64,000 nt of DNA from Oscillospiraceae bacterium (GTDB lineage: Bacteria; Bacillota; Clostridia; Oscillospirales; Ruminococcaceae), in contig JAAWDH010000020.1 of the NCBI GenBank assembly GCA_022793675.1, positions 3,297 through 67,296 of the forward strand. Direction: 5' to 3'. Below, in pieces: positions 3,251-64,000 of this stretch. The position numbers and the translations under genes were made by a program. Within the stretch, counting starts at the first letter, position 1. Each line of letters begins with the position of its first letter. Below the pieces are notes generated by a model. It saw only the letters and a list, made by a program, of their open reading frames with translations, ran no database searches and was not told the origin of the DNA.

Positions 3251-5152
3251 ATGAAATTGCGCCCGCCCGCACTGCCGTTAATCAATGTTGACCCTTATTT
3301 CAGCGTTTGGTCAATGGCCGACCGCATTACCGACAAAGCGCCCTGCCACTGGACAGGCAAGCCCAATTCAATTACGGGTATCGCCGTGATTGACGGCGTC
3401 CCCTACCGTTTTTTGGGCGAAGGGGAAGCACCGGCGATGGTTCAGGCTGCTGTTGAGGTAGAGGCTATGTCTACAGCTGTGACTATGGAGGCTGTCGGGG
3501 TAAAGCTGGAACTGTTTTTCCTAAGCCCTTTGCTGATAAAGGATTACGAGCGTTTAACCCGTCCAGTTTCCTATTTGCAGGTATCGGCCAGCAGTCTTGA
3601 CGGCAAGGCCCATCAGGTGATAGTCAAAATTAGCGTGTCGGAGGAGCTTTGTCTGGATAAAAAAGGCCAGAAGCCGGTTGTCAGTGAAACCCTTGTGCTG
3701 CCCGGGGGAATCAAAGCCGCCAAAATGGGCGGCATCGACCAGCCAGTTTTAGCGGTGAGCGGCGACGACATCCGCATTGATTGGGGATATGTTTACCTTG
3801 CTGTTAAGGGCAGCGGGGCTGCTGTGGGGACGGAGAAAGGCGAAATGAGCTGGATTACCGCTGAAGCCGACCTGTCGGCGGAGCCGGCGCTGTTTGCTTT
3901 TGCCTATGACGATATTGAGAGCATCGAATATTTCGGCAGCCGTCTGAAGTCCTGGTGGAATAGGGATGGTAAGACCATTGAGACGGCTATTGCCGAAAGC
4001 TACGGCGATTTTGAAGAAGTAAGGGCTGATTGCGCCGCCTTTTCCGATAGACTTTTCCGGGACGCTGTCCGCGCCGGCGGCGAGAAATACGCTGAACTGC
4101 TGCTGCTGGCCTACCGGCAGGTGCTGGGGGCCCATAAACTGGCGCTGGATAAAAACGGCGAGCTGCTTTACATCTCCAAGGAGTGCTTTTCCAACGGCTG
4201 TGCTGCGACAGCCGACGTCAGCTACCCCTCTATCCCTCTTTTTCTGCTTTATAACCCCGAGCTGGTTAAGGGGATGATGCGCCCAATCTTCCGTTATGCG
4301 AAGACGGACGCTTGGAAATATGATTTTGCGCCCCATGACGCCGGCACTTACCCCAAAGTCAACGGCCAGGTCTACGGCGGCGTCGACCCTAAGCTGGAGA
4401 TGCAGATGCCGGTGGAGGAATGCGGCAATATGATCCTGATGGCGGCGGCTGTCTGTCTAGCGGAGAAAGACCCTGCTTTCGGGATGGAGCATATCGACGA
4501 GCTGGCAGGCTGGGCGAAATATCTGTTGGAGAACGGCGCGGACCCCAATAACCAGCTTTGCACCGACGACTTTGCCGGCCATCTTGCCCACAACTGCAAC
4601 CTGTCGCTGAAAGCAATTATGGCGCTGGCGGGCTTGGGTGAAATCCTTAAAATGGCTGGGCGGCAGGAAGAGGCGGCCCAGTACGAAAGCGCTGCTCGGG
4701 AGATGGCTAAAAACTGGGTGAGCACCGCGGCCAACGGCGACGGAAGCTTTCGGCTTGCCTTTGACCAGCCTGGCAGCTTCAGCATGAAATACAATGTTGT
4801 CTGGGATAAGGTGATGGGTCTTGGCATTTTCCCTAAAGAGGTTATCGCTTCGGAGTTTGCCAGCTATAAAAAGCGCGTTAACCCCTACGGGATGCCGCTG
4901 GACAACCGTAAAGATTACACCAAATCCGACTGGCTGGTCTGGACAGCGACCCTTGCAGCCGAGCGGGAGGATTTTGAAGCTTTTGTCGAGCCGCTGTGGA
5001 AGTTCTACCACTACTCCCCTTCGCGGGTGCCGATGGGCGACTGGTATGAGACCATCACAGCTGCGGCTGTCTGTTTCCAGCACCGCACCGTGCAGGGCGG
5101 GCTGTATATGAAGCTCTTGGAGCAAAGCGGCATTTGCCGGGTTAAGCGGTAA
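3251..5152 (+). CDS. glutaminase A-like / DUF4965-DUF1793 family protein (six-hairpin glycosidase-like)
   Basis: 633 aa. Motifs DVSYPSIPLFLLYNPELVKGMMRPIF, FAPHDAGTYP and MPVEECGNMILM are characteristic of the DUF4965/DUF1793 (GtaA-like) family. RBS AAGGAGG lies upstream. Confidence 0.8.
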   Translation: MKLRPPALPLINVDPYFSVWSMADRITDKAPCHWTGKPNSITGIAVIDGVPYRFLGEGEAPAMVQAAVEVEAMSTAVTMEAVGVKLELFFLSPLLIKDYERLTRPVSYLQVSASSLDGKAHQVIVKISVSEELCLDKKGQKPVVSETLVLPGGIKAAKMGGIDQPVLAVSGDDIRIDWGYVYLAVKGSGAAVGTEKGEMSWITAEADLSAEPALFAFAYDDIESIEYFGSRLKSWWNRDGKTIETAIAESYGDFEEVRADCAAFSDRLFRDAVRAGGEKYAELLLLAYRQVLGAHKLALDKNGELLYISKECFSNGCAATADVSYPSIPLFLLYNPELVKGMMRPIFRYAKTDAWKYDFAPHDAGTYPKVNGQVYGGVDPKLEMQMPVEECGNMILMAAAVCLAEKDPAFGMEHIDELAGWAKYLLENGADPNNQLCTDDFAGHLAHNCNLSLKAIMALAGLGEILKMAGRQEEAAQYESAAREMAKNWVSTAANGDGSFRLAFDQPGSFSMKYNVVWDKVMGLGIFPKEVIASEFASYKKRVNPYGMPLDNRKDYTKSDWLVWTATLAAEREDFEAFVEPLWKFYHYSPSRVPMGDWYETITAAAVCFQHRTVQGGLYMKLLEQSGICRVKR

Positions 5153-38365: not shown

Positions 38366-38750
38366 GAGGATACGAGAGGTACGGAGAGTACGGGGGTACG
38401 GGTCGCTTTTGAAAAAGCTCCGCAAAACTTTTAATCGCCCGGGTACGCATCAGCACAGCTTAATCCACCTACTGCGTCGGTACCGCTGACCAACCGCGAC
38501 ATCTCACGCCATGTTTTTCGCTTACAAGCCGCCGAGCAGAGCCAGGCGGCAAACGTGAACAGTCTGCCGGCACAGCCGGCCGCCTACTGCGTCGATAAGC
38601 AGATGGAACAGCCTGCCTGTAACCGCGGGAGAACCGGCTATGCCTTTCCGCAGCAGAAATCCGGCTTGCTGGATTTCCGACGCGAAGTAAAAGTTTTGCG
38701 AACTTAGCTCTGCTAAGCTTGGCTTTCTTTAAAAGCGACCGTACTCTAGG
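38366..38750. repeat. full composite copy filling the purA-guaA spacer (A x4 - B - H - E - H - C' - B' - A')
   Basis: Starts the nucleotide after the purA stop and ends 20 nt before the guaA ATG. 38431-38579 is the inverted twin of 53474-53622. Confidence 0.9.
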
Positions 38751-44606: not shown

Positions 44607-45183
44607 TGCCAAGCAGTGGTTGCCGACAGTAGGCGTCGGCCGGCGTGTCGCCGCAGACAATTCGCGGCCGGCTGTGCCGGCAGACAATTCGCGGCCGGCT
44701 GTGCCGGCAGACAATTCGCGCCGGAAATCCAGCAAGCCGGATTTCTGCTGCGGAAAGGCATAGCCGGTTCTCCCGCGGTTACGGGCAGCCGGCTGTGCCG
44801 GCAGACAATTCGCGCCGGAAATCCAGCAAGCCGGATTTCTGCTGCGGAAAGGCATAGCCGGTTCTCTCGCGGTTACGGGCAGCCGGCTGTGCCGGCAGAC
44901 AATTCGCGCCGGAAATCCAGCAAGCCGGATTTCTGCTGCGGAAAGACATAGCCGGTTCTCCCGCGGTTACGGGCAGCCGGCTGTGCCGGCAGACAATTCG
45001 CGCCGGAAATCCAGCAAGCCGGATTTCTGCTGCGGAAAGGCATAGCCGGTTCTCCCGCGGTTACGGGCAGGTGATTCCAGCTGCTCCTATCGGCAGTAAC
45101 TACCGACGCAGTAGGCGGCTATGGCTGCGCACAAAGGTACCCTAGCGATGAAAAGTCTTTGCCAAGCTTTCTTCAGAAAGCGG
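44607..45183. repeat. composite locus: 2 extra 27-bp sub-units + 4 x 94-bp tandem C units + H'-B'
   Basis: Period exactly 94 bp (units start at 44695, 44789, 44883 and 44977), with 2 SNPs between units. Followed by CCGACGCAGTAGGCGGCTATGGCTGC...GGTACCCTAGCGATGAAAAGTCTTTGCCAAGCTTTCTTCAGAAAGCG. Confidence 0.9.
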
Positions 45184-49642: not shown

Positions 49643-49873
49643 GGGTACGGGGATACGAGGGGTACGGGGAGTACGACGCTTTCTGAAGAAAGCTTGGCAA
49701 AGACTTTTAATCGCCCGGGTACCCGCCGGCACAGCTTTACACGCCTACTGCGTCGGTAGGGATAGCTGGAATGACCTGCCCGTAACCGCGGGAGAACCGG
49801 CTAAATTTTTCCGCAGCAGAAATCCGGCTTGCTGGATTTCCGGCGCGAATAGTCCGCGGCGACACGCCGCCCG
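49643..49873 (+). repeat. copy A x4 - B - x - H - C' (+ C-sub')
   Basis: GGGTACGGGGATACGAGGGGTACGGGGAGTACGACGCTTTCTGAAGAAAGCTTGGCAAAGACTTTTAATCGCCCGGGTAC...CCTACTGCGTCGG...CCCGTAACCGCGGGAGAACCGGCT...GCAGCAGAAATCCGGCTTGCTGGATTTCCGGCGCG. Confidence 0.85.
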
Positions 49874-53446: not shown

Positions 53447-53770
53447 CCGGCTGTGCCGGCAGACAGTTCGCGGCCGGCTGTGCCGGCAGACTGTTCGCGT
53501 TTGCCGCCTGGCTCTGCTCGGCGGCTTGTAAGCGAAAAACATGGCGTGAGATGTCGCGGTTGGTCAGCGGTACCGACGCAGTAGGTGGATTAAGCTGTGC
53601 TGATGTGTACCCGGGCGATTAAAAGTTTTGCGAGCTTAGCTCTGCTAAGCTTGGCTTTCTTCAAAAGCGACCGTACTTCTCGTACTCCTCGTACCCCTCG
53701 TACTCCTCGTACCCCTCGTACTCCTCGTACCCCTCGTACCCCTCGTACTCCTCGTACCCCCGTATTCTCC
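53447..53770 (-). repeat. copy C-sub x2 - E' - H' - B' - A' x11
   Basis: Inverted twin of the 38.4-kb copy. Ends in an 11-unit 9-bp tract (53672-53770, CGTACYCCT). Confidence 0.9.
53672..53770. repeat. 9-bp microsatellite, 11 units (CGTACYCCT)
   Basis: Read directly: cgtacttct cgtactcct cgtacccct cgtactcct cgtacccct cgtactcct cgtacccct cgtacccct cgtactcct cgtaccccc gtattctcc. Confidence 0.95.
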
Positions 53771-53814
53771 CCGTTTCTGGGAAAGATATGCAAGCGGCAA
53801 TGAAAGGAGCTGTT

Positions 53815-54996
53815 ATGGAAAAGTCCACCTTTCGCGACTGGATGCTTTATCTGGCCGTCCTTGTTTTCAGCGCCGCCTTTTTGGCGGGCGGCTGGCGCTA
53901 CGCCACTGCCGGCCGGCAGCTGCTGGGGCAGAATATCAACGGGACGGTGTCCCCGTCGGTCAAGGCGAAGCTTGTTGAAACAATCGCCAGCAACGAAATC
54001 TACAGCCAATATACCGGCGCTGTCACCGAGACCCGTACCGTCAGCTACGCCGTTTTTACCGAAGGGGCCGACAAAGGCAAACAGGTGCTGGTCACCCAAG
54101 TCATGGACAGCACAGCGATGCTGCTGGAAACGCCGTTTTCGCCTGGCGACCGGGTGTTCGTTTACCAAGGCGAGAACGAGTACGGCGAGGCCCAATGGTT
54201 CGTAGCCGGGCCGGTGCGGACGCCCTGGCTTTTGGGGCTGACAGCAGCCTTTGTGCTGCTGGTGGTGCTGTTTGGGCGGGGGAAAGGGGTCCGGACGATC
54301 CTTTCGCTGGCCTTGACCTGCATGGCGGTGTTTTTTGTGCTGGTACCGGCGATTGTCAGCGGCCGCAACATTTATCTGTGGTCGATTATAACCTGCATTT
54401 ATACCATTATTGTAACCTTGTCGCTGGTAAGCGGCTGCACTTTCAAGAGCTTGGCGGCGGCGCTGGGGTGCCTAGGCGGCGTTGGGGTGGCGGGGGCGAT
54501 CACGTTAATCAGCGAGCGCGCTTTGCGCATGACGGGCTTGGTGGACGAGGACTCGATGCTGCTTCTGTTTATCAATGAAGAGCGCCCCATCGACTTGAAA
54601 GCGCTGATTTTTGCCGCCATTATCATTGGCGCGCTGGGGGCGACGATGGATGTTGCGATGTCCATCAGCTCCGCCCTTACCGAGCTGATGCGCAACCTGC
54701 CGGGGATGCCTTTCTGGTCTGTTGTCCGTTCGGGGCTTTCCATCGGCCAGGATATTATGGGCACAATGTCCAACACTTTAGTGTTGGCTTATGTAGGAAG
54801 CGGACTTCATGTAACGCTGCTGTTTTTGACCTATTACGAGCGGCTGGAAGACATCTTAAACGTAGAAATGATCGCAGCAGAGCTGCTTCAGGCGCTGGCG
54901 GGGAGCATCGGCATCCTTTTCGCCATCCCAGCTACGACGTTGGCCGCCGCCTTTTTCCGGCGGCCCTTCAGCAGACAAGAAAAGGAGGCCTCTTGA
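53815..54996 (+). CDS. YibE/F family membrane protein
   Basis: ATG 53815 lies behind AAAGGAG. One N-terminal TM helix, an extracellular segment and ~7 further TM helices. The YibE/F-like pattern is recognised from memory. Confidence 0.7.
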   Translation: MEKSTFRDWMLYLAVLVFSAAFLAGGWRYATAGRQLLGQNINGTVSPSVKAKLVETIASNEIYSQYTGAVTETRTVSYAVFTEGADKGKQVLVTQVMDSTAMLLETPFSPGDRVFVYQGENEYGEAQWFVAGPVRTPWLLGLTAAFVLLVVLFGRGKGVRTILSLALTCMAVFFVLVPAIVSGRNIYLWSIITCIYTIIVTLSLVSGCTFKSLAAALGCLGGVGVAGAITLISERALRMTGLVDEDSMLLLFINEERPIDLKALIFAAIIIGALGATMDVAMSISSALTELMRNLPGMPFWSVVRSGLSIGQDIMGTMSNTLVLAYVGSGLHVTLLFLTYYERLEDILNVEMIAAELLQALAGSIGILFAIPATTLAAAFFRRPFSRQEKEAS

Positions 54997-56090
54997 TGAA
55001 CAAAATCGGTCTTTACATCCATGTGCCCTTCTGCGCCTCAAAGTGCGGCTACTGCGATTTTTACTCCCGGGTGCGCCCCGACCTGATTGCGCCTTATATT
55101 GCTGCGCTGAAAGAGGAGCTTCGGCGCTGGGAGGGGCGTGGTCTGCAGGCGGACACCCTCTTTTTCGGGGGCGGGACGCCTTCGCTGCTGCCGCCAAGGG
55201 AAGTCGGCGCGCTGATAAGCCTTTGCCGGCGCATTTTCTCCCTTGGGGCGGAGGCGGAGGTTACGCTGGAAGCCAATCCCGATACCGTCAGCCTTGAAAG
55301 CCTTGCAGGATACCGCCGGGCCGGCGTCAACCGCCTTTCGATGGGGATGCAGTCGGCGGTGGCCAAGGAGCTGCGCCTGCTGGCCCGTTCCCACAGCCCC
55401 GAGGCGGTAAAGCTGGCGGTCGGCGCGGCTAGGGAGGCGGGCTTCGATAATCTAAGCCTGGATTTGATGCTGGGGCTGCCCCGCCAGACGATGGACAGCC
55501 TAAAATATTCCCTAGAAGCCGCCACAGCCCTAAACCCCGAACACCTCTCCTGCTATATCCTGAAGATAGAAAAAAACACCGCCTTTAACCGCCGGCTGAT
55601 GCAGCGTTACTGCCCCAGCGACGACCTGACCGCTGATTTTTACCTGGCTGTTTCCCATTTTTTGCAGGAACACGGCTACGCCCACTATGAAATCTCCAAT
55701 TTTGCTCAGCCCGGCCGCGAAAGCCTCCACAACCTGAAATACTGGCGCAGCGAAGATTACCTGGGGTTTGGCCCGGCTGCCCACAGCTGTTTTGCGGGCC
55801 AGCGCTTTTTCCATCCGGCCGACGTTGTGCAATATATCAACACCAAAGGCCAGGATCGGATTGCCGACGGGCCAGCCGGGTCGGCGGAGGAACGGCTGAT
55901 GCTCGCCCTGCGGCTGGCGGAAGGGGTCTGCCCCCAAAACCTGCCCGACAGTTTTGACTGGGCGGATTTTATCAGCCGCTGTGCCCCCTATGAAAAAGGC
56001 GGCCTGATGGCCCGGACCGACGCCGGCGGCATCCGCCTCACCGAGCGGGGCTTCCTGCTCTCCAACAGCATCCTCGCCAACCTTTTATAG
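54996..56090 (+). CDS. hemW: radical SAM heme chaperone HemW (HemN-like, oxygen-independent coproporphyrinogen oxidase family)
   Basis: LYIHVPFCASKCGYCDF (CxxxCxxC), GGGTPS and RLSMGMQS. ATG 54996 lies behind AAAGGAGG and overlaps the upstream stop. Confidence 0.9.
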   Translation: MNKIGLYIHVPFCASKCGYCDFYSRVRPDLIAPYIAALKEELRRWEGRGLQADTLFFGGGTPSLLPPREVGALISLCRRIFSLGAEAEVTLEANPDTVSLESLAGYRRAGVNRLSMGMQSAVAKELRLLARSHSPEAVKLAVGAAREAGFDNLSLDLMLGLPRQTMDSLKYSLEAATALNPEHLSCYILKIEKNTAFNRRLMQRYCPSDDLTADFYLAVSHFLQEHGYAHYEISNFAQPGRESLHNLKYWRSEDYLGFGPAAHSCFAGQRFFHPADVVQYINTKGQDRIADGPAGSAEERLMLALRLAEGVCPQNLPDSFDWADFISRCAPYEKGGLMARTDAGGIRLTERGFLLSNSILANLL

Positions 56091-56357
56091 GGGTACGGGA
56101 GATACGAGAGTACGACGCTTTTTTGAAAAGAAAGCCTAGCTTAGCAAAGCTAAGCTGCAAAAAACTTTAATCGCTAGGATACACGCCTGCACAGCCATAG
56201 CCGCCTACTGCGTCGATAGCTGCTGGAACCACCTGCCCGTAACCGCGGGAGAACCGGCTATGTTTATCCGAAGCAGAAATCCGGCTTGCTGGATTTCCGG
56301 CGCGAATTAAAAGTTTTGCGGAGCTTTTTCAAAAGCGACCGTATTCCCCCGTATCCC
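56091..56357. repeat. full composite copy (A x3 - B(ins) - x - H - C' - B' - A' x2), starts 1 nt after the hemW stop
   Basis: Left end GGGTACGGGAGATACGAGAGTACGACGC, right end GCGACCGTATTCCCCCGTATCCC (inverted). The internal modules match 38366 and 49643. Confidence 0.9.
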
Positions 56358-56505
56358 GAGATGGAAATTACAAAACGGTTACAAATTTTGGGGCAGAGTG
56401 GATTCCTGCTGGGAAATTGTTGTGAATATACCAAAAAATATCCCGGAAATTTTAGGCTATTCCTACGAAGTTTTCTTTTTGAGGCAGAAATGGGTAACAA
56501 AACAG

Positions 56506-56533
56506 TTGCAAAATCCTGAGGTTGTGTTATAAT
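56506..56533 (+). promoter_or_regulatory. sigmaA promoter with extended -10 upstream of the M23 peptidase gene
   Basis: TTGCAA-16-TATAAT, with TGT immediately upstream of the -10. Confidence 0.6.
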
Positions 56534-56540
56534 AGGCATT

Positions 56541-56556
56541 GGTTACAGCTGTAACC
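56541..56556. promoter_or_regulatory. perfect 16-bp palindrome GGTTACAGCTGTAACC at about +1 of the M23 promoter (operator candidate)
   Basis: Read directly. 8 nt downstream of the -10. Confidence 0.45.
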
Positions 56557-56587
56557 GCTTTGTAATCAGCGAAAGGAGACGGTTCAG

Positions 56588-58474
56588 ATGGTGATTCATA
56601 ACGGCGAGCCCGCCGCTCCCCTGACCAAAACTGCCTCTGTCCTGACAAAAGGATGTGCTGCCGCGAAAGAAGCGATGCGGCAGTGGAAATTATATATGGA
56701 GGCCCATATATGGCCCGCCTGCCGGAAAGCCGGCGGCGCGGCGTGCAGCTTATGCGGGAAGGTCGGGGCTGCTTCGGCCCGAATGCTCGGCATTGCTGCC
56801 AAAGGCGCTGGGCAGGGGCTTGTGGCTGCCGGACGGGCTGCCGGAAAATTCTGCGGTTTCGTGGGGGCGGCTGCCGCCCGCGATTTGGCGCTGGTTCACG
56901 GCGCTGTGGCCGGAAGGCTCTCGGCCTTTGGCGGCCGGGTGCTGGATAGGGCGGTCCGGGTGACCGATCGCTGCGGCGAAAAGATTTACGGCTTCTTCTA
57001 CGGCCTTGCGCGGCCGGTGCGCAGCGTTTGCCACGCCCCCCGGCTTTTAGCCGACGGCTATCGGAAAGGCGGCGTCCGCGAGGCTTTCTTTACGGTAGTC
57101 GAGGGCGTCTACAATAACCTGTACATCCTGCGCACAGCGGTCAATTACACGTTGCCGGTAGTCGGGATCTTTTTCCTGGTCAATGTCATCCAGAGCGGCA
57201 CCCAGCTTAATTACGCGCTGGCGTTGGAGCAGGACGGCCAGGTCATCGCTTATGTGGCGGATGAATCGGTCTATACCACCGCCCAGCGCGACCTGAAGAG
57301 CCGTATCATTACCACCGACGGCGAAGCCGAGCTGAACCTGCGGCCGACCTTTATGATGGCGGCTGTCAACCCCGAAGATGTTACAACGGCGGCTGAGCTG
57401 ACCGATGAGCTGATCCAGCTGAGCACCGACGATATCCAGCAGGCCCAGGGGCTTTACATCGACGGCGAGTTTTACGGCGCGGTCACTTCTGCCGGCCTGA
57501 TTGAGGATGTCCTTGATGATACGCTGGATCAGTATGCCTCCGGCGCCGAGGGCGAGGTTTTGGAATTTACCCGCGATATCCAGCTGCGGGACGGTCTTTA
57601 TCCCACCGATAGCTTGGCTGATGCCGGGGAACTGACCGCACTGCTGACTTCTGAGGTGCAGTCGCGGAAGACCTATACGATTGAACAGGGCGACAGCCCC
57701 ATCGTTATCGCCAATAAAAACGGCCTTACCTACAGCGAGTTTAAAGCTTTGAACCCCGGTATCGAAGAGGAATGCATGGTCGGGCAGGAAACGGTTATCG
57801 CCCAGTCGGAACCTTTCCTCGGCGTGCGCAGCACCAAGACGATTACCTATAACGAGGAAATCCCCTTTGAAACCGAGGTTACTAAAGACAGCAATAAGGC
57901 AAAGGGCTACCGCGAAGTGACCCAGGAAGGGCAGAAAGGGCAGAAATCCATCACGGCCCGTGTGGTCACCGTCAACGGCCATGAAGAGAGCCGGGAGGTC
58001 CTTTCTGAAATTGTTACAGCTGAAGCTGTGCCCCAGAAGGTCGTCGAAGGCACCAAGTCTGAAACGACTTACCGCGCTGCCTATTCTGCGCCTACCTATG
58101 GTTCCGGCCAGTACAGCGGCACCTTTATCTGGCCCACTTCCGGCGGTTACATCAGCTGCTATTACGGCAGCGGCGGCCATAAGGGCCTGGATATCGCCAA
58201 TTCCTACGGCAAGCCGGTCTATGCCTCTATGGCGGGCAAAGTCGTTGTTGCGGGCTGGTATTACAGCTACGGCAAATGCGTGGTCATCGACCACGGCAAC
58301 GGCGTACGGACCCTTTATGGGCACAATTCCAGCCTCAATGTGGCAGTCGGCCAGACAGTCGGCCAGGGCGAAGTGATTGCCCAGGTGGGCAGCACCGGTT
58401 ATTCTACCGGCAACCATGTCCATTTTGAGGTTCAGATCAACGGCCGCACCCAGAACCCGCTTAACTATCTGTAA
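56588..58474 (+). CDS. M23 family metallopeptidase with LysM and G5 domains
   Basis: LysM (YTIEQGDSPIVIANKNGLTYSEFKALNP), G5 (ITYNEEIPFETEVTKDSN...VTQEGQKGQKSI...VVEGTK) and M23 motifs HKGLD and GNHVHFEV. Confidence 0.85.
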   Translation: MVIHNGEPAAPLTKTASVLTKGCAAAKEAMRQWKLYMEAHIWPACRKAGGAACSLCGKVGAASARMLGIAAKGAGQGLVAAGRAAGKFCGFVGAAAARDLALVHGAVAGRLSAFGGRVLDRAVRVTDRCGEKIYGFFYGLARPVRSVCHAPRLLADGYRKGGVREAFFTVVEGVYNNLYILRTAVNYTLPVVGIFFLVNVIQSGTQLNYALALEQDGQVIAYVADESVYTTAQRDLKSRIITTDGEAELNLRPTFMMAAVNPEDVTTAAELTDELIQLSTDDIQQAQGLYIDGEFYGAVTSAGLIEDVLDDTLDQYASGAEGEVLEFTRDIQLRDGLYPTDSLADAGELTALLTSEVQSRKTYTIEQGDSPIVIANKNGLTYSEFKALNPGIEEECMVGQETVIAQSEPFLGVRSTKTITYNEEIPFETEVTKDSNKAKGYREVTQEGQKGQKSITARVVTVNGHEESREVLSEIVTAEAVPQKVVEGTKSETTYRAAYSAPTYGSGQYSGTFIWPTSGGYISCYYGSGGHKGLDIANSYGKPVYASMAGKVVVAGWYYSYGKCVVIDHGNGVRTLYGHNSSLNVAVGQTVGQGEVIAQVGSTGYSTGNHVHFEVQINGRTQNPLNYL

Positions 58475-58481
58475 ACCAGGG

Positions 58482-58519
58482 CGCCGCGTATCGGACTCAG
58501 CCGAGACGCGGCGTTTTTA
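58482..58519 (+). terminator. terminator of the M23 peptidase gene
   Basis: CGCCGCGT...ACGCGGCG stem, then TTTTT. Confidence 0.75.
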
Positions 58520-58538
58520 TCGGAAGGTTGGTGTTTTG

Positions 58539-58913
58539 ATGGAACAGATTGCGGCCCTTCTCGCTAAGATCAGCCCGACGATTGCCCTGCCTGGCCGCGA
58601 GCCGCTGGCTTATGCGATTTTCTGTGCAATGCAGCTGTTTGAGCGGACGCCGCCGCCAGAAACGGTCCGCGTTACCGAAATGGTCTACGCCCCCGCTGCC
58701 AGGATGCTGGGAAAGGACGTGTCTACGGTGGTCAAAGCGTCTGCGCGGGCGCTGAAATGCTGTTGGCTGGACGGCCAAAACCAGCGGCTTAACGCGGTTA
58801 TCGGCGCGGAGCTGCCGCTTTGCCCTACCGTCAAAGAGTTTGTCCTCTGCTGCGCCTATTATCTCACATTTAAGGTCCCTTATTACAAATCGATGTCGTC
58901 TATTGTGTTTTGA
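58539..58913 (+). CDS. stand-alone Spo0A C-terminal (DNA-binding) domain-like protein
   Basis: 124 aa. By eye it aligns with Spo0A_C of the spo0A gene in this window: LAKISPTIALPGREPLAYAI / HNIGVPAHIKGYHYLRDGI, VTEMVYAPAARMLGKDVSTVVKASARALKCCW / [32 protein letters not shown] and PTVKEFVLCCA / PTNSEFIAMIT. No receiver domain. Confidence 0.6.
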   Translation: MEQIAALLAKISPTIALPGREPLAYAIFCAMQLFERTPPPETVRVTEMVYAPAARMLGKDVSTVVKASARALKCCWLDGQNQRLNAVIGAELPLCPTVKEFVLCCAYYLTFKVPYYKSMSSIVF

Positions 58914-58920
58914 ATTTGGA

Positions 58921-58967
58921 AGCTGGCAGCATTTTTCCGATAGATGCTGGCGGCTTTTTGTTTTTTG
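58921..58967 (+). terminator. terminator after the Spo0A_C-like gene
   Basis: AGCTGGCAGCAT/ATGCTGGCGGCT (one mismatch), then TTTTTGTTTTTT. Confidence 0.7.
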
Positions 58968-59060
58968 CTGTTGAATTGCACCTAAAAAGAGCAGGCGTTG
59001 TCACATTCCCCTGCCCATTCATAGTCTGGAGCAACCCCAAAGAAAGAGGTGTTGCAGCTT

Positions 59061-59264
59061 ATGGAAAAAGTTGAACCCAAAAAATGCTGCCATGTGTTCG
59101 GCGAGAACGAAGTCCTAGACTCCCTCCCGCTGGCGATGGCCTATGTCCCGATGCAGCGCTGGGAGAAGCTCTACGAGCCTGCCGTGGCTTTTGACCGCGG
59201 TACCCTGTTCTGCAAGCTCGACCTGCCGTTTAAAGGGAAGGGGGCGGTTTCGGATGGAAAATAA
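59061..59264 (+). CDS. cotJA: spore coat-associated protein CotJA
   Basis: LPLAMAYVPMQRWEKLYEPAVAFDRGTLFCKLDLPF matches the CotJA signature. ATG 59061 lies behind GAGGTG. Confidence 0.8.
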   Translation: MEKVEPKKCCHVFGENEVLDSLPLAMAYVPMQRWEKLYEPAVAFDRGTLFCKLDLPFKGKGAVSDGK

Positions 59265-59511
59265 CACCGTCAACAAGTCGGCGCTGCTGCGGGAAATCCA
59301 GATCTGCCAGTTTGCGCTGATCGAAACGCAGCTCTATCTGGATTCCCATCCCTGCGACCAGGAGGCGCTGCGCTATTTTACCGCCCACCGGGAGCATCTT
59401 AAGGAGCTGACGGCTCGCTGGGAAAAGGTCTGCGGCAAGGTGCGGGAAAACGGTTCGGAATTATGTTGGGCCTGGACAGATACCCCCTGGCCCTGGCAGG
59501 TGGAGGGTTAA
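59254..59511 (+). CDS. cotJB: spore coat protein CotJB
   Basis: LLREIQICQFALIETQLYLDSHPCDQEALRYF...H...L is the CotJB signature. Overlaps the cotJA 3' end. Confidence 0.85.
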   Translation: MENNTVNKSALLREIQICQFALIETQLYLDSHPCDQEALRYFTAHREHLKELTARWEKVCGKVRENGSELCWAWTDTPWPWQVEG

Positions 59512-59514
59512 GCT

Positions 59515-59631
59515 ATGTGGAGTTACGAGAAACGGTTGATTCACCCCGTGAAGATCAAATGCCCCGACCCCCAGGCGGCTACCGTGATCATGAGCCAGCT
59601 TGGTGGGCCGCATTCCAATAAGTTATACTAG
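59515..59631 (+). pseudogene. cotJC: 5' fragment of cotJC (Mn-catalase-family spore coat protein), interrupted after ~codon 32
   Basis: The ATG is 3 nt after the cotJB stop. MWSYEKRLIHPVKIKCPDPQAATVIMSQLGGP matches the conserved CotJC N-terminus (B. subtilis MWVYEKKLQYPVKV...IEQYGGADGELAA). The sequence then diverges to HSNKLY* inside the element end. This ORF is not in the ORF track (<60 aa). Confidence 0.8.
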
Positions 59632-61052
59632 AGCCAATAAAAAATATCGAACTTATTCTCTGCCCGATAGAAGACGATTTTTTCAATAAACTGTTTGGCA
59701 GCACTGTTTCGTTCGGCATTTGTAGCCTGGGGGTCCAACAGGATCTCCAGGTTCTTTTTATTTTTGTCAAGAAAACGCCGGCGGATTTCTTCGGGCGACC
59801 ATTCCTCTTTTGGCGTGAGGGAAGCTTCCAGCTTATGGATGTCGGCTTCGATCCGCGCCTTGCTGTCCTGGAATTCTTCCAGCGTGTAGGCTCCAGCTTC
59901 ATAAGCTTCGCGGGCGCGGCGCATCCGGGCCTTGGCCTGCTCCAGCTGCTTTTTAGCGAGCTTGCTGCCGGCGTCGTCTTCCTTGCTTGTCAGGTGCAGG
60001 TGGGACAGGAAAGCTCCGCTTTCAAAGGTCGCGGCCAGTACCGGCAGCACAGCTGCCGAGACGGCGTCGGTGGTGGTGTAATGGCTGACTTTGCAGGTGC
60101 CATGGGCATAGCGGGTACACTGCCAGGAATCCGTTTTGCCGCCGCTTGCGAGGGTTGCGCCGCAGGCTGAGCAGCGCAGCAGCCCGTTATAGAGCCGGGG
60201 CGCGGCGTTTGCGGTATGGTCATGGCGGCGGTAACGCGCTTTCTGTTCAGCGATGCGCTGCTGGACGGCCTCCCAAAGCTCTTTGCCGATAATTGGCTGA
60301 TGCTGGCCGTCAACGACTTCGACCTGTTCGCCGTAGTAATCCCGGCCGCCGTTATGGCTGGTGCCGCTGCGCAGCTTGCCGATGTAGACAGGGTTCCTGA
60401 GGATGTATTCGACCGTCCGGTTCTCCCAAAGCCGCCCTGTCCCCAGTGTGTTGGCCCATCCTGCCAGCGTCCGCAGCGGCTCGCCGGCGGCATAGCGGGT
60501 AAAGAGCTGCTGGACGAGTTCTGCTTCCTGCGGCACGACCTGATAGCAGCCGTCCTGATAGCAGTAGCCGTAAGGCGCGCCGCTGGTTGGCAGCCCGCGG
60601 GAAAGCCGTTCCTTCATGCCGCGTTTGACCTCGCCGCTGAGGTTGACGCTGTAATATTCGTCCATCCACTCAATGATCCGCTCAATCAGGCCGCCGAAGG
60701 GGCCGTCGGCCAGCGGCTCGGACACTGACACGACCTCAATGCCTTCCCGGCGGAGCAGCGACTTATAGACGATGGATTCCTCTTGGTTGCGGGCGAAGCG
60801 GGAAAACTTCCAGACCAGGATGACCTCAAAAGGCGTCGGCTTTTGGCGGGCCGCGGCAATCATCCGCTGGAACTCCGGACGCTTTTCAGCTTTCCGGCCG
60901 CTGATGCCGTCGTCTTCGCGGAAAACAAATTCTTCCGGCAATAGCAGCTCATGGCTTTTGGCATAATCCAGAATTATTTTCAGCTGGCTGTCGGGGCTGT
61001 ATTCCAGCTGGTCGTCGGTCGACACCCGAACGTAACAGGCGGCCGTGCGCAT
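59628..61052 (-). CDS. large serine recombinase (phage integrase type)
   Basis: Resolvase catalytic N-terminus AACYVRVSTDDQ, a recombinase domain, a zinc ribbon (CSACG...C..Y.HGTC) and a C-terminal coiled coil. 474 aa. RBS AGGAGG. Confidence 0.95.
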   Translation of the reverse strand: MRTAACYVRVSTDDQLEYSPDSQLKIILDYAKSHELLLPEEFVFREDDGISGRKAEKRPEFQRMIAAARQKPTPFEVILVWKFSRFARNQEESIVYKSLLRREGIEVVSVSEPLADGPFGGLIERIIEWMDEYYSVNLSGEVKRGMKERLSRGLPTSGAPYGYCYQDGCYQVVPQEAELVQQLFTRYAAGEPLRTLAGWANTLGTGRLWENRTVEYILRNPVYIGKLRSGTSHNGGRDYYGEQVEVVDGQHQPIIGKELWEAVQQRIAEQKARYRRHDHTANAAPRLYNGLLRCSACGATLASGGKTDSWQCTRYAHGTCKVSHYTTTDAVSAAVLPVLAATFESGAFLSHLHLTSKEDDAGSKLAKKQLEQAKARMRRAREAYEAGAYTLEEFQDSKARIEADIHKLEASLTPKEEWSPEEIRRRFLDKNKKNLEILLDPQATNAERNSAAKQFIEKIVFYRAENKFDIFYWL

Positions 61053-61163
61053 TATGGGTTATTCCTCCTATTTTTATTTTTAAGTGTTACTAGAGCAACC
61101 GACCTAGTTTTGTAACAATCTACTTGTTAGTTTCCTTTGGGGCCATACTTCTTCTGTTAAACT

Positions 61164-62030
61164 TTATTCGTAATCTTCTTGCTCTAACGTATCAGGTAAT
61201 TTTTCTGCGGAACTTGATAATTTTTTAATATCAGATTCTGCGCGCCGTTCAACTTTTTTAATGTCTTCTGCAGGTGGGAGTTCTTCAGGGATAATACCAC
61301 GCTTTAACAGCATATCTCTAATACTGGTATTGTTTTGAACATGTTCTCTGGTTATAAAAAGTTCACCGCGAAGATCATCGGTTTCAACATGTAAATTTGT
61401 CATTTCTGTTGCTAAATTCTTGGCTGCTAAAGTTATAGGGGGTAAGAAATCAGCTAACGGACGAGCTTGTTTAATTTTATACCGTACCTTCATGTCAGCA
61501 GTTGAAGAGCCAAATAATGCTTTGTCTCCTTTAGAACGAATTCGAGCGAACCCAGTATCGTCAACACCCCGTTCATAAATATTCTGAGAAAGTCTCTTTT
61601 CGGCTTCACGAAGTTGAGAACGGATTTGCATTCGGTGTAAATCTTCTAAACGTTCTTCAAGGATTTCTAATTTCCTTGTTTGTAGAGCAAAATAGGTTTG
61701 CGCAAACGCAATCTCAGTTTTACTGGCATCGCCATTTTGTGCAATAAGATAGCATGCATATCTGGTCAGAAAAAAATCAGATATTTTTCTGACGCTAGCA
61801 GAGCCTATTTTTGTTAATTTCGTTGTTTCACGAAAATGGTCTTCGATATTCCCTCCAGAATTTAAACAAGCTTTTTGGGCGCGGGTTAAGACTTCAAAAA
61901 AGTTTTCCCAGCGCTTATAGCCCAATATTTGCTGGAGTTCTCTTGCGCACCAATACTCAAGTCCTGATGATGTTTTGTGAGCAATTTGGTCGAAAGTCAT
62001 TTTCATTTGTGTAAGGAGTTCCTTGTCCAT
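61164..62030 (-). CDS. dinD: DNA-damage-inducible protein D (DinD) family protein
   Basis: WCARELQQILGYKRWENFFEVLTRAQKACLNSGGNIEDHF...KIGSASVRKISDFFLTRYACYLIAQNGDASKTEIAFAQTYFALQTR is collinear with E. coli DinD as recalled. Low GC. ATG 62030. Confidence 0.8.
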   Translation of the reverse strand: MDKELLTQMKMTFDQIAHKTSSGLEYWCARELQQILGYKRWENFFEVLTRAQKACLNSGGNIEDHFRETTKLTKIGSASVRKISDFFLTRYACYLIAQNGDASKTEIAFAQTYFALQTRKLEILEERLEDLHRMQIRSQLREAEKRLSQNIYERGVDDTGFARIRSKGDKALFGSSTADMKVRYKIKQARPLADFLPPITLAAKNLATEMTNLHVETDDLRGELFITREHVQNNTSIRDMLLKRGIIPEELPPAEDIKKVERRAESDIKKLSSSAEKLPDTLEQEDYE

Positions 62031-62044
62031 GTTATCAGTTCCTT

Positions 62045-62383
62045 TCAAAATCTTATTGTGTTGTTGGTGTCTATCCATTTTCGTTGCTGGTATCGCCGTT
62101 TTTGTGGGCTGAGCACGAATGCGTTAGAGCCAGATTCGTTTTTAAACCTCTCGAATTCGAGAGGTTTAAAATTAGGATTGTTGAGTTGCTCCCAAAGGCC
62201 TAAAAATTCGATAGTACTTCGATTGCGCATCCAATTGCAAATAACGGCATAGGCTTCGCTAGTGCTCCGGTATCTTGCAATATCAGTAAGCGAAATATAG
62301 TCATCAGTTCCAGTTTGGGACAGTACGACAATTTCTGTGTCTTGTGCGTGGATAACGCTCTTGACTGGTTTTTGCTTTGCCAT
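62045..62383 (-). CDS. KilA-N domain protein (domain-only, 112 aa)
   Basis: YISLTDIARYRS...VICNWMRNRSTIEFLGLWEQLNNPNFKPLEFERF is a KilA-N signature. Low GC. Confidence 0.75.
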   Translation of the reverse strand: MAKQKPVKSVIHAQDTEIVVLSQTGTDDYISLTDIARYRSTSEAYAVICNWMRNRSTIEFLGLWEQLNNPNFKPLEFERFKNESGSNAFVLSPQKRRYQQRKWIDTNNTIRF

Positions 62384-62413
62384 TTTATCACTCCTTAAAT
62401 TTTTGCAATAGTT

Positions 62414-62866
62414 TCAGCTCTCCATCCTCTCTGGGCTGATCTGCTCGAACCGCCATCTCACCAGATTTTCCGGCAGCCCCATCGCAAAAGAAAGCCGCTC
62501 ATAAGAATAGTCGGCATATTCTAAAAGCTCGTCATCATCCGGCCAGAGCAGAAAGGCAGCAAACCGGTCGGCGGCGTTCTCCAGCTTTCCCATTACCTGG
62601 TAAGTGCGGGTATCCAGATAAACGGCATTATAGTCTGCATGGAGCAGCGCGTGCCCCAGTTCATGGGCGCAGACGAATTCCTGGACATAGCCGTTGAGGC
62701 TGTCGTCAATATAGATGGTATCCACGTTGAGGGCACGATGGAAAAAACCGCGAGTCCCGTTCAAATCTGTGAAGGCCACATTGATCCCCATCATGTCACA
62801 GATTTTGAAAGGGTTTCGGGTTTGGTATCTGCTGAGAACAGCAGCCGCAACCTTTTTCATATTCAT
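62414..62866 (-). CDS. ImmA/IrrE family metallo-endopeptidase (anti-repressor protease)
   Basis: HEXXH in CAHELGHALLH. Sits immediately downstream of and coupled to the XRE repressor. The start (62866 or 62887) is uncertain. Confidence 0.85.
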   Translation of the reverse strand: MNMKKVAAAVLSRYQTRNPFKICDMMGINVAFTDLNGTRGFFHRALNVDTIYIDDSLNGYVQEFVCAHELGHALLHADYNAVYLDTRTYQVMGKLENAADRFAAFLLWPDDDELLEYADYSYERLSFAMGLPENLVRWRFEQISPERMES

Positions 62867-62883
62867 AAAGCAGCCCTCTTCTG

Positions 62884-63351
62884 TCAATCTTCCATTGCTT
62901 CTGCTTCGGCGAGGATTTCAGCTTTCAGTTTGGCGGCGCGTTCCTTTTCTGCCTGAGTTTTTGTTTTGGCAAGCTCCAGCCCGATCTTCATGGCAGCGAG
63001 AATGCTTTCAATTGCTTCATCGGTGGCGACGCCGCCTTCGAACATTAGCCCTTCCTGATTCAGCAGCTGCTCCCTGGCCTGTTCCAGGATTTCTTCTACG
63101 CTGCGCGTATCTGCTTCAGAGGCAGGCGCTTTTGTTTTTTCAGGTTCGGTTTCGGTCCCCAGCAGCAAATCTGTGGGAACGCCAAAATAGCCAGAGACTT
63201 TTGCCAGATTTTCTGCCGATAATTTTTTGGTTCTTCCAGCTTTTAGGTCTCCCATAATGCCTCTGCTTATCCCTAAGTCAGCACACATTTTGCCCGGTTT
63301 TATCCCACGTTTTTCGCAAAGCTGCTCAATGATTTCATACATATTGCACAT
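62884..63351 (-). CDS. XRE-family phage repressor (ImmR/CI-like)
   Basis: HTH KPGKMCADLGISRGIMGDLKAGRTKKLSAENLAKVSGYFGVPTDLLLG. ATG 63351 lies behind GGGAG. Confidence 0.85.
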   Translation of the reverse strand: MCNMYEIIEQLCEKRGIKPGKMCADLGISRGIMGDLKAGRTKKLSAENLAKVSGYFGVPTDLLLGTETEPEKTKAPASEADTRSVEEILEQAREQLLNQEGLMFEGGVATDEAIESILAAMKIGLELAKTKTQAEKERAAKLKAEILAEAEAMED

Positions 63352-63409
63352 ATTGTACGCTCCCAATTCGTACGAAGTTCCAAATTACGGAAAGCCGTAC
63401 TTTTTAGGC

Positions 63410-63438
63410 TTGACTTGTACGGAATACAGTGCTAAAAT
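63410..63438 (+). promoter_or_regulatory. rightward (Cro-side) promoter of the element switch
   Basis: TTGACT-17-TAAAAT. The spacer contains GTACGGAAT. Confidence 0.65.
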
Positions 63439-63487
63439 AGAATCAACAGGAACGGTATCCCGTACAACTTCAAGTCTTAACACTTTT

Positions 63488-63516
63488 AGTATAGTACAGC
63501 ATTCCGTACCTGTCAA
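63488..63516 (-). promoter_or_regulatory. leftward (repressor-side) promoter of the element switch
   Basis: Minus strand: TTGACA-17-TATACT. The spacer contains the same GTACGGAAT at the same offset. Confidence 0.65.
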
Positions 63517-63542
63517 TATAAAATTTAGAGAAAGGGGGGTAT

Positions 63543-63788
63543 TTGGTGAATCCGTGCAAATTCACTCCGTTTGGTTTGTACGTAAAGACCAAACTTTTGC
63601 AGTGCGGTAAGACCCAAAAATGGTTGGAATCTGAAATCAATGCCCGTACAGGGATGTATGTGGACGACAGCTATTTGTATAAAATATTTACGGGTCGCCG
63701 GAGTGCACCAAAGATTTCTCAAGCAATTCAAGAAATTCTGCAGCTTGAGGATGCAGCGGGTGAAAGGGGGGTGATATGGTGCGAGTAA
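63543..63788 (+). CDS. Cro-like small HTH protein (start TTG 63543 or GTG 63546)
   Basis: 81 aa. ...CGKTQKWLESEINARTGMYVDDSYLYKIFTGRRSAPK is an HTH pattern. Divergent from the repressor across the operator region. RBS AAAGGGGGG. Confidence 0.6.
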   Translation: MVNPCKFTPFGLYVKTKLLQCGKTQKWLESEINARTGMYVDDSYLYKIFTGRRSAPKISQAIQEILQLEDAAGERGVIWCE

Positions 63789-63793
63789 AAAAA

Positions 63794-63874
63794 ATGATTG
63801 CTTATTTAAAAGAGCATATCTGTTCTGTCATGGCGATTATTTTGGGATTTATCGCCCTTATTAGAACGTTCTAA
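63794..63874 (+). CDS. possible 26-aa hydrophobic peptide (MIAYLKEHICSVMAIILGFIALIRTF)
   Basis: The ATG is 6 nt after the Cro-like stop. The 3' end lies inside a 34-bp perfect palindrome. Very short, so weak. Confidence 0.25.
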   Translation: MIAYLKEHICSVMAIILGFIALIRTF

Positions 63875-64000
63875 TAAGGGCGATAAATGCGACAAGAAGA
63901 GCTAAAAAATCAATCCACTTTTCCATCACGTATTTTTTAGCTTCTGCCCATGTCATTTCTTCTTTGTGCATTCCTTTATGAGATAAACGAAAGGCGACTG
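63861..64000 (-). CDS. 3' end of an ORF entering from beyond the window (...MTWAEAKKYVMEKWIDFLALLVAFIALIRTF*)
   Basis: The frame is open from the window edge. C-terminal hydrophobic helix. The last 7 codons are the mirror image of the plus-strand peptide because of the palindrome. Confidence 0.35.
   Translation of the reverse strand, partial: VAFRLSHKGMHKEEMTWAEAKKYVMEKWIDFLALLVAFIALIRTF

Follow-up and report, generated by a model that had tools for sequence, protein, structure and literature searches.

A temperate prophage inserted by its own large serine recombinase splits the spore-coat gene cotJC in an uncultured gut Oscillospiraceae bacterium

The host of the DNA analysed here is an uncultured gut Oscillospiraceae bacterium (assembly GCA_022793675.1, contig JAAWDH010000020.1), and the analysed stretch, referred to as the window, comprises 64,000 nucleotides (positions 3,297 to 67,296 of the forward strand). 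The right-hand part of the window contains the beginning of a temperate prophage, which was put into the coding sequence of cotJC by the prophage's own large serine recombinase (LSR), and the window ends inside the prophage. A reading made from the sequence alone had proposed that cotJC is split by a prophage-like element after about codon 32; the split is real, and the break lies after codon 33. The other end of the element was found in related contigs, and excision in silico restores the cotJC reading frame exactly. We propose that the element is most likely similar to SPbeta, which would make it an active phage that is excised upon induction and also in the sporulating mother cell, where it rebuilds cotJC. 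In our judgement this proposal has about an even chance of being right.

The genes cotJA and cotJB are intact in the window, as stated in the sequence-only reading. A third open reading frame (ORF; 59515–59631) starts three bases past the cotJB stop codon and translates as MWSYEKRLIHPVKIKCPDPQAATVIMSQLGGPHSNKLY followed by a stop. Its residues 1–33 correspond to positions 1–33 of the Pfam family Mn_catalase (28.5 bits, gathering cut-off 27). The last native codon is codon 33 (His, to 59613), after which the frame picks up five codons from the phage (SNKLY) before it is closed by a stop at 59629–59631. Intact CotJC alleles of the same species are 211 residues long, and 178 codons are absent from the window copy, more than the approximately 160 estimated before. 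These codons lie outside the window, as had been claimed: a tblastn search of the 64-kb window with full-length CotJC as the query found no second piece of the gene beyond the 33 codons. The gene order cotJA-cotJB-cotJC is kept in all related loci. In B. subtilis, cotJ is expressed in the mother cell under the control of sigma-E, and mother-cell expression is presumed for the present host. A predicted promoter, TTGTCA-16-CATAGT, upstream of cotJA is the sole local hint of sporulation-type expression.

The missing part of cotJC is located at the other end of the element, in the same orientation as the 5′ fragment. The cluster formed around the intact CotJC at 90% identity includes six variants of full length, encoded on at least 15 contigs, and five variants of 176 residues, encoded on at least 23 contigs and beginning at the first internal Met past the break. 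In the contigs with the 176-residue products (L102–L111, L192–L201), foreign DNA passes through ...AAGAGG(A/G)CCGCAT into the rest of cotJC, which is the attR junction. The flavoprotein (DFP) gene located downstream of intact cotJC is found after the cotJC part of attR as well. The species also has uninterrupted alleles, one of which, encoding a 211-residue CotJC, is on the contig L013, with flanking genes as in the window. Joining the attL of the window to the attR of L102 yields a 211-residue CotJC identical to L013 in 636 of 636 nucleotides, and 462 of the next 464 nucleotides are identical. The complete identity holds for a join placed after CCGCAT, whereas a join at GG is expected to produce one synonymous difference and the same protein. 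The rebuilt and the natural 211-residue proteins both carry the Mn_catalase family domain PF05067. The attL sequence is identical, a few host polymorphisms aside, in at least 16 contigs, which derive from independent samples, and attR is present in 20 contigs. Altogether, more than 30 independent assemblies show these junctions. Five samples (3300051405, SRR29764181, SRR32882047, ERZ14651004 and ERZ14651005) contain attL and attR together. The three points on which the sequence-only reading could have failed thus turned out in its favour: the 3′ fragment was found, the N-terminus is that of CotJC, and the junctions recur.

The att sites, the definition of which had been suggested as a check, were determined at the level of bases. 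The attB site reads ...CAGCTTGGTGG(G/A)CCGCATGGCGAG..., attL reads ...CAGCTTGGTGGGCCGCATTCCAATAAGTTATACTAGAGCC..., and attR reads ...GAGTATAACTTATTACAATTAAGAGG(A/G)CCGCATGGCGAG..., so that the bases common to phage and host are GG(G/A)CCGCAT. Within attL, GG occupies 59605–59606 (positions 1 and 2 of Gly codon 31), followed by the polymorphic base 59607, the shared CCGCAT at 59608–59613, and the inverted-repeat half AATAAGTTATACT of the P′ arm at 59617–59629. The rebuilt attP, AGTATAACTTATT-N22-AATAAGTTATACT, has 13-nt arms that form a perfect inverted repeat with its centre on GG. For three related phages, the free as well as the integrated form was recovered (L144/L146, L401/L399 and L128/L407), and the centre of their attP repeats falls on the same GG, corresponding to bases 1 and 2 of the second Gly codon in the motif GG-P. 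Because of these coinciding centres, the crossover dinucleotide is most likely GG at 59605–59606, and the shared CCGCAT appears to be flanking identity. The assignment is slightly favoured by a second lysogen lineage, in which the host allele actually observed is predicted by the GG model alone. The polymorphic base after GG was also considered as a marker of the crossover and proved undecisive, being A or G in attL, attR and intact alleles alike.

The LSR gene ends close to the junction. The sequence-only reading correctly described a 474-residue LSR encoded on the minus strand from 59628, and only its distance needs correction: the stop codon (59628–59630) is 14 nt, not about 17 nt, away from where the identity with attB ends, and it is overlapped by the P′ arm. 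The N-terminal Resolvase domain (residues 4–153, E 7.5e-26, Pfam) includes the motif YVRVSTDDQ at residues 7–15, which holds the catalytic serine of the serine recombinase family. It is followed by the Recombinase domain (174–269, E 5e-19) and by Zn_ribbon_recom (288–336, E 5.5e-4), the match of which is below the gathering score (20.7 versus 25.3 bits); the four ribbon cysteines are visible as CSACG...CTRYAHGTC. A heptad-like stretch at 355–410 was taken by eye as a coiled coil. Residues 153–431 align to structures of the SPbeta integrase with weak but significant matches, and the LSR also weakly matches TP901-1 integrase structures. The LSR of the nearest named phage is just 39% identical. 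The exact 474-residue protein is encoded on 12 contigs (NCBI, ENA, Logan), and cotJB and cotJA adjoin it wherever a flank is present. Just upstream of the LSR start codon, at 61081–61096, there is a copy of the attP P′ arm (TAAGTGTTACTAGAGC) that agrees with 59619–59634 in 14 of 16 positions. It could be an autoregulatory integrase-binding site, for which it is a candidate, or a product of chance.

The genes beyond the LSR, which the sequence-only reading named as dinD, KilA-N, ImmA/XRE and Cro-like, all have matches in Pfam, NCBIfam or PHROG (Table 1), and the ImmA/IrrE-type protease is predicted to be the anti-repression partner of the XRE repressor. The switch region between the repressor and the Cro-like gene contains the predicted promoters TTGACT-17-TAAAAT on the plus strand and TTGACA-17-TATACT on the minus strand, together with the 33-nt inverted repeat I2 (arms 63410–63442 and 63484–63516). 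No further record of the exact 81-residue Cro-like protein was found. The contig L001, 99.9% identical to window positions 53623–64000, extends the element by 2.2 kb, which encode an Ant-type anti-repressor and small zinc-ribbon ORFs. The right end of the element is known from other assemblies (L195, L102) and consists of an endolysin gene (Amidase_2 and LysM domains), a 153-residue double helix-turn-helix (HTH) ORF, a hairpin and attR; the hairpin and the T-run before attR were read by eye as a terminator. A sister variant has a 97.5% identical LSR and a RhuM gene replacing DinD and KilA-N. Another phage, with a 96% identical endolysin, has the endolysin-HTH block in common, followed by an unrelated LSR (29% identity) in a free attP arrangement. 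All attR contigs break 100–1366 nt inside the phage, with the assemblies interrupted ~270 nt from attR, which we attribute to this mosaicism of a common endolysin-HTH block followed by different LSR modules. The G+C content is 52–64% over the host region and the LSR gene, compared with 39–50% in the rest of the left arm (61053–64000), and the identity between the window element and the RhuM variant ends exactly at the LSR start codon. These two observations, together with L449, show that the integration module is swapped as a unit between phages.

Judged from its predicted genes, the element has the layout of an active temperate phage, and its tail is probably contractile. A relative with a 92% identical endolysin encodes tape-measure, baseplate J, sheath-initiator and holin proteins, and the IMG/VR contigs of LSR relatives are mostly 33–45 kb long. 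Terminase and capsid genes of the window element were not recovered, its interior being unassembled. A megablast search of INPHARED with the 4.4-kb left arm gave no match, and the whole phage was not found in IMG/VR, where searches with the LSR, endolysin and anti-repressor gave nothing but relatives of 35–65% identity. The right-arm pattern was absent from the metagenome collection, a negative result that means little, as this collection evidently does not include the carrier sample 3300051405.

The element is polymorphic within its host species. The exact CotJB protein occurs in 153 index blocks, and among the 10 places listed, cotJB is followed by the LSR in seven, by an uninterrupted cotJC in two, and by a contig end in one. 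Split and intact alleles were found in different samples of one study series (SRR256616xx). One of the intact alleles is from the gut metagenome of a mouse, the NCBI record of the cotJC 3′ fragment belongs to an Oscillospiraceae metagenome-assembled genome, and GTDB representative genomes offer no closer CotJC than one of 81% identity. The metagenome-assembled genomes GCA_948504515.1 and GCA_949738835.1 represent the host species too. Since it is present in some samples and missing in others, the element behaves like an active temperate phage.

A mechanism can be proposed for the SPbeta-like behaviour. Integration was the recombination of attP with attB, most likely at the GG of Gly codon 31, leaving codons 1–33 of cotJC at attL, in the window, and codons 34–211 at attR, outside it. 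The reverse reaction would require the LSR and a putative recombination directionality factor (RDF), the existence of which we infer. Excision would remove the phage and leave the CotJC protein unchanged. It would take place upon induction and also during the terminal differentiation of the mother cell, the presumed site of cotJ expression. Lysogens would then still place CotJC in their spores, and the prophage would be inherited through the genome of the forespore.

Insertion into cotJC is common among relatives of the LSR. The clade set consists of 160 loci from IMG/VR and metagenomes, which encode 37–67% identical LSRs, and 124 of them extend at least 150 nt past the LSR stop codon. A cotJC fragment adjoins the LSR in 58 of the 124 loci and is always broken at codons 19–33, mostly 25–33, in the motif GG-P-(D/H)-GE. 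The fragment is the 3′ part of cotJC, directly downstream of and co-directional with the LSR, in 45 of the 124 loci, and the 5′ part in 13, where it runs antiparallel to the LSR, which is the arrangement of the window. Many of the remaining loci resemble free phage genomes. The two orientations are mixed inside LSR clusters at 60% identity, and the nearest relative of the window LSR with a flank (L363, 62% identical) shares its P′ arm, TAGTATAACTTATTG, but is of the opposite orientation type. Read in the direction of the LSR, the attP centre of window-type elements is CC and that of the opposite type GG. The direction of integration by serine integrases is set by a non-palindromic central dinucleotide, and the contrast between the two orientation types is therefore as expected.

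Two side observations concern the targets of such elements. In L113:9971–21365 (IMG isolate genome 2593339269), cotJC is split twice within one genome, at codon ~30 by an element with a 487-residue LSR and at codon ~63 by an element of ~9 kb with a 531-residue LSR (L113:19021–20616), and a third break may follow codon ~136. INPHARED records from human faeces contain cotJC pieces that end or start at codons 59–68, which together with the double split of L113 indicates that cotJC has at least two recurrent integration sites. The second observation is a sister LSR cluster (L430:11492–11932 and ~30 related loci, 39–40% identical to the window LSR), which adjoins a truncated gene with a PG_binding_1 domain, not cotJC. 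The start of the fragment (QWGSKYLADQGYSTIEILRYYYG) resembles by eye what we take to be the end of a SpoIID/LytB-type domain, and the gene may be another sporulation-related target.

One type of relative has no phage structural genes. In 15 contigs from the human gut (L379–L394, L410), the LSR directly adjoins the cotJC 3′ fragment. The eight that reach far enough upstream have the order cotJA-cotJB-cotJC(1–31), 10.6 kb of intervening DNA, LSR and cotJC(30–end), with AGTACGGTGG as the shared core. The 10.6-kb interval (L381:685–11990) encodes SpoIIM, ProC, DnaJ-TPR, DUF5685, a HAD hydrolase and an SH3-lysozyme, and no phage structural genes were found in it. The 14 LSR alleles of this L381 type diverge by at most 2%, with dN/dS of 0.12–0.29, which indicates purifying selection. 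The cotJC 3′ half encodes 180 residues with the same stop codon in 12 of the 15 contigs, the other three being cut by the contig end or ending differently. The motif ACATATT-N13-CATATTAT, located ~40 nt upstream of the L381-type LSR, is presumably close to the sigma-E consensus. An excision unit that is kept in a non-phage element is a prediction of the developmental model, and it bears on the clade, not on the window element. Mother-cell excision of the interval, if it occurs, would also eliminate spoIIM and proC.

A broader proposal can be derived from the clade: the Gly-Gly codons of cotJC would be a common landing site of the LSR clade over gut Clostridia, used by elements ranging from active phages to domesticated units with spoIIM and proC. 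Their orientation would be flipped by a mere GG/CC inversion at the centre of attP, and the set would act as a developmentally excised switch on the coat catalase. We regard this proposal as tentative and rather unlikely to hold as a whole.

Several points weigh against excision of the window element in the mother cell. The sequence recovered holds nothing that ties excision to sporulation. No CATA-type −10 box is present upstream of the window LSR, which is probably expressed from the lysogeny operon or from a weak predicted promoter, TTACAA-17-TAGTAA. The sequence-only reading had advised looking for a small RDF gene with a sigma-E- or sigma-K-type promoter, and a regular-expression scan for both promoter types in the ~8 kb recovered (~16 kb of strand) gave one weak sigma-K-like match, AC-N16-CATACAATA, when by estimate ~0.5 are expected by chance. 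No RDF, including SprB-like ones, was identified in the recovered sequence. The attB site was found together with attL or attR in none of the listed samples, and IMG/VR yielded no attP junction of the window phage. The interior of the element was not recovered, and we infer its size and completeness from relatives. LSR phages often enter conserved genes for non-developmental reasons. Finally, spores of B. subtilis that lack CotJC have no apparent defect, as cited in PMC12122855, and therefore the insertion would be tolerable without excision.

The single promoter match is located 20 nt before an 86-residue orphan ORF (L001:26–332, minus strand; ~65898–66204 in extended coordinates), which has the ribosome-binding site GAGGTGA and no Pfam or PHROG match. 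The ORF is a candidate for the RDF, with a promoter motif at chance level.

The same prophage and site could also be explained by cotJC being merely a tolerated landing place, from which the phage is excised only upon induction, so that lysogens form spores without the coat catalase. We consider this a serious possibility that falls somewhat short of an even chance. The element has the genes of an ordinary inducible temperate phage, among them an ImmA/repressor switch, and the insertion is polymorphic among samples, even inside the series SRR256616xx. The missing sporulation promoter and RDF and the lack of an apparent spore defect after CotJC loss in B. subtilis count in favour of a tolerated site as well. 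However, two observations that point indirectly toward a link with sporulation are left unexplained by a tolerated site. Many diverged LSRs, in 58 of the 124 loci, are inserted at the same codons of a gene from a presumed mother-cell operon, and the short L381 version free of phage genes has kept its LSR under purifying selection and both cotJC halves open. Moreover, comparable elements that were tested were all excised in sporulating cultures (PMC4191935, PMC5595907, PMC10747680).

Alternatively, the element could be a defective, vertically inherited remnant of the skin type that forms no particles and is kept for its excision unit alone. Such remnants are known in the LSR clade from the L381-type locus, and the interior of the window element was neither assembled nor found. 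Nevertheless, we consider this improbable, because the element is both present and absent within the species, two variants differ in cargo beside 97.5% identical LSRs, and the switch, anti-repressor and endolysin are intact. Furthermore, near relatives have full tail and lysis modules, and modules are traded with a phage in the free attP configuration. That the junction is an artefact of assembly or binning in a chimeric contig, a general possibility for metagenome-derived sequence and nothing more, is refuted for practical purposes by the recurrence of attL and attR in different samples and assemblers (NCBI, ENA, JGI, Logan) and by the fit of the two junctions to the base.

To our knowledge, the tested examples of split sporulation genes all come from a few cultured Bacilli and Clostridium species. 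Elements in sigK, spsM, spoVFB, spoVR, gerE and yabG are excised during sporulation or in dependence on the growth phase (PMC4191935, PMC5595907, PMC5025042, PMC10747680, PMC6957869). For an active phage that is also excised in the mother cell, the parallel is SPbeta in spsM of B. subtilis (SprA integrase, SprB RDF), likewise a temperate phage inserted by an LSR into a gene for the spore envelope that is expressed in the mother cell (as is presumed for cotJC here), with the integrase gene at one end by the att site and a reading frame rebuilt by excision. The target gene, the host class (here Clostridia, Oscillospiraceae) and the phage differ, the similarity of the LSRs is remote, and the excision of SPbeta in sporulation is proven (PMC4191935, PMC5499854), whereas that of the window element is putative. 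The skin element in sigK (SpoIVCA in B. subtilis; CD1231 with the RDF CD1234 in C. difficile) is also an LSR element that splits a mother-cell sporulation gene, and it shares the lack of phage structural genes with the 10.6-kb L381-type relative. However, skin is a defective element, and sporulation depends on its target sigK, whereas the window element looks active and is polymorphic, and cotJC is probably dispensable. The elements gin (gerE, B. cereus ATCC 10987), vfbin (spoVFB) and yin (yabG) encode their own recombinases and are excised during sporulation, but their targets and recombinases are different; gin has no phage genes at all (PMC5595907), and yin is so far limited to one strain (PMC10747680), unlike the widespread LSR clade that targets cotJC. 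The A118-like prophage in comK of Listeria monocytogenes (active lysogeny) similarly returns a host gene by conditional excision (PMC6957869), but the trigger is intracellular growth instead of sporulation, and excision is not limited to a terminal cell.

Interrupted cotJC genes are already on record. Kohm et al. (bioRxiv 10.1101/2021.11.22.469490) cite Abe et al. (2013) for frequent integration into cotJC, gerE, yaaH and yhbH, and a skin-like element in cotJC of Laceyella sacchari was described by Galperin et al. (bioRxiv 10.1101/2022.02.25.481979). In these cases the same gene is interrupted by a mobile skin-like element, but in Bacilli. Our literature search found no experimental test of any cotJC element, no report of one from gut Oscillospiraceae, and no description of a Gly-Gly site shared among elements or of flipped orientations. 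The split of cotJC itself was thus already noted in silico, and the clade-level recurrence at the Gly-Gly site goes beyond it.

The surroundings of the cotJ operon have additional features. The gene just upstream of cotJA (58539–58913, 124 residues) encodes a Spo0A_C-like DNA-binding domain (E 5e-6, 26.9 bits versus a cut-off of 25) and has no NCBIfam match; it adjoins the cotJ operon in all related contigs. A hairpin with a 13-bp stem, followed by CTTTTTATTT, is present on the plus strand, which is that of cotJ, at 59724–59753 within the 3′-terminal part of the LSR gene and could terminate read-through from the cotJ promoter ~100 nt past the junction. A dispersed family of GC-rich repeats of 76–170 nt, with the internal hairpin CCGGAAATCCAGCAAGCCGGATTTCTG, occurs at 44713–45085, 56160–56358, 38566–38700, 49690–49850 and at least eight more sites of the window, and includes four tandem 94-nt units. 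The repeats at 44713–45085 were considered as a tRNA array, but the likeness is a resemblance only and tRNA identity was ruled out. An Rfam search of the window, the repeats included, gave no match. The family looks like a host intergenic repeat of the repetitive extragenic palindrome (REP) or miniature inverted-repeat transposable element (MITE) kind.

Table 1 Features of the split cotJ operon and of the left end of the prophage in the window.
Feature	Position	Strand	Description	Evidence
cotJA	59061..59264	+	intact, 67 residues	Pfam PF11007 CotJA, E 1.6e-16; same gene called in related contigs
cotJB	59254..59511	+	intact, 85 residues	Pfam PF12652 CotJB, E 3.6e-23
cotJC 5′ fragment	59515..59613	+	native codons 1–33	100% identical to intact CotJC residues 1–33
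attL	59583..59629		host B arm, crossover GG (most likely) and phage P′ arm	outer limits approximate
LSR (integrase)	59628..61052	-	474 residues, intact	Pfam Resolvase, Recombinase and Zn_ribbon_recom
dinD-like gene	61164..62078	-	Bro-N domain, next to integrase	NCBIfam DinD, 345 bits, cut-off 242; Pfam Bro-N
KilA-N domain protein	62045..62383	-		Pfam PF04383; PHROG match
ImmA/IrrE-type metalloprotease	62414..62887	-		Pfam Peptidase_M78, E 3e-14; PHROG 87 metallo-protease
XRE/CI-type repressor	62884..63366	-		Pfam HTH_26/HTH_19; PHROG transcriptional repressor families
Lysis-lysogeny switch region	63367..63542			divergent sigma-70-like promoters (predicted) and 33-nt inverted repeat
Cro-like early regulator	63543..63788	+	81 residues, divergent from repressor	PHROG 1468 transcriptional repressor, E 1.6e-9
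Early region start	63789..64000		element continues past window end	

The rebuilding of sporulation genes by phage excision is a classic programmed DNA rearrangement in bacteria. The split-gene architecture is now found in an uncultured gut Oscillospiraceae bacterium and in other gut Clostridia, at one recurrent cotJC site and with att sites defined to the base. The concept is unchanged by this, and a serine integrase family with a known, highly conserved target is added. If the broader proposal for the clade is true, programmed DNA rearrangement in sporulation would be common in the gut microbiota, beyond a few Bacilli. With attB, attP and the LSR known, the system is testable and lends itself to the question of whether carriage of the phage changes the composition of the spore coat and the oxidative resistance of spores in gut commensals.

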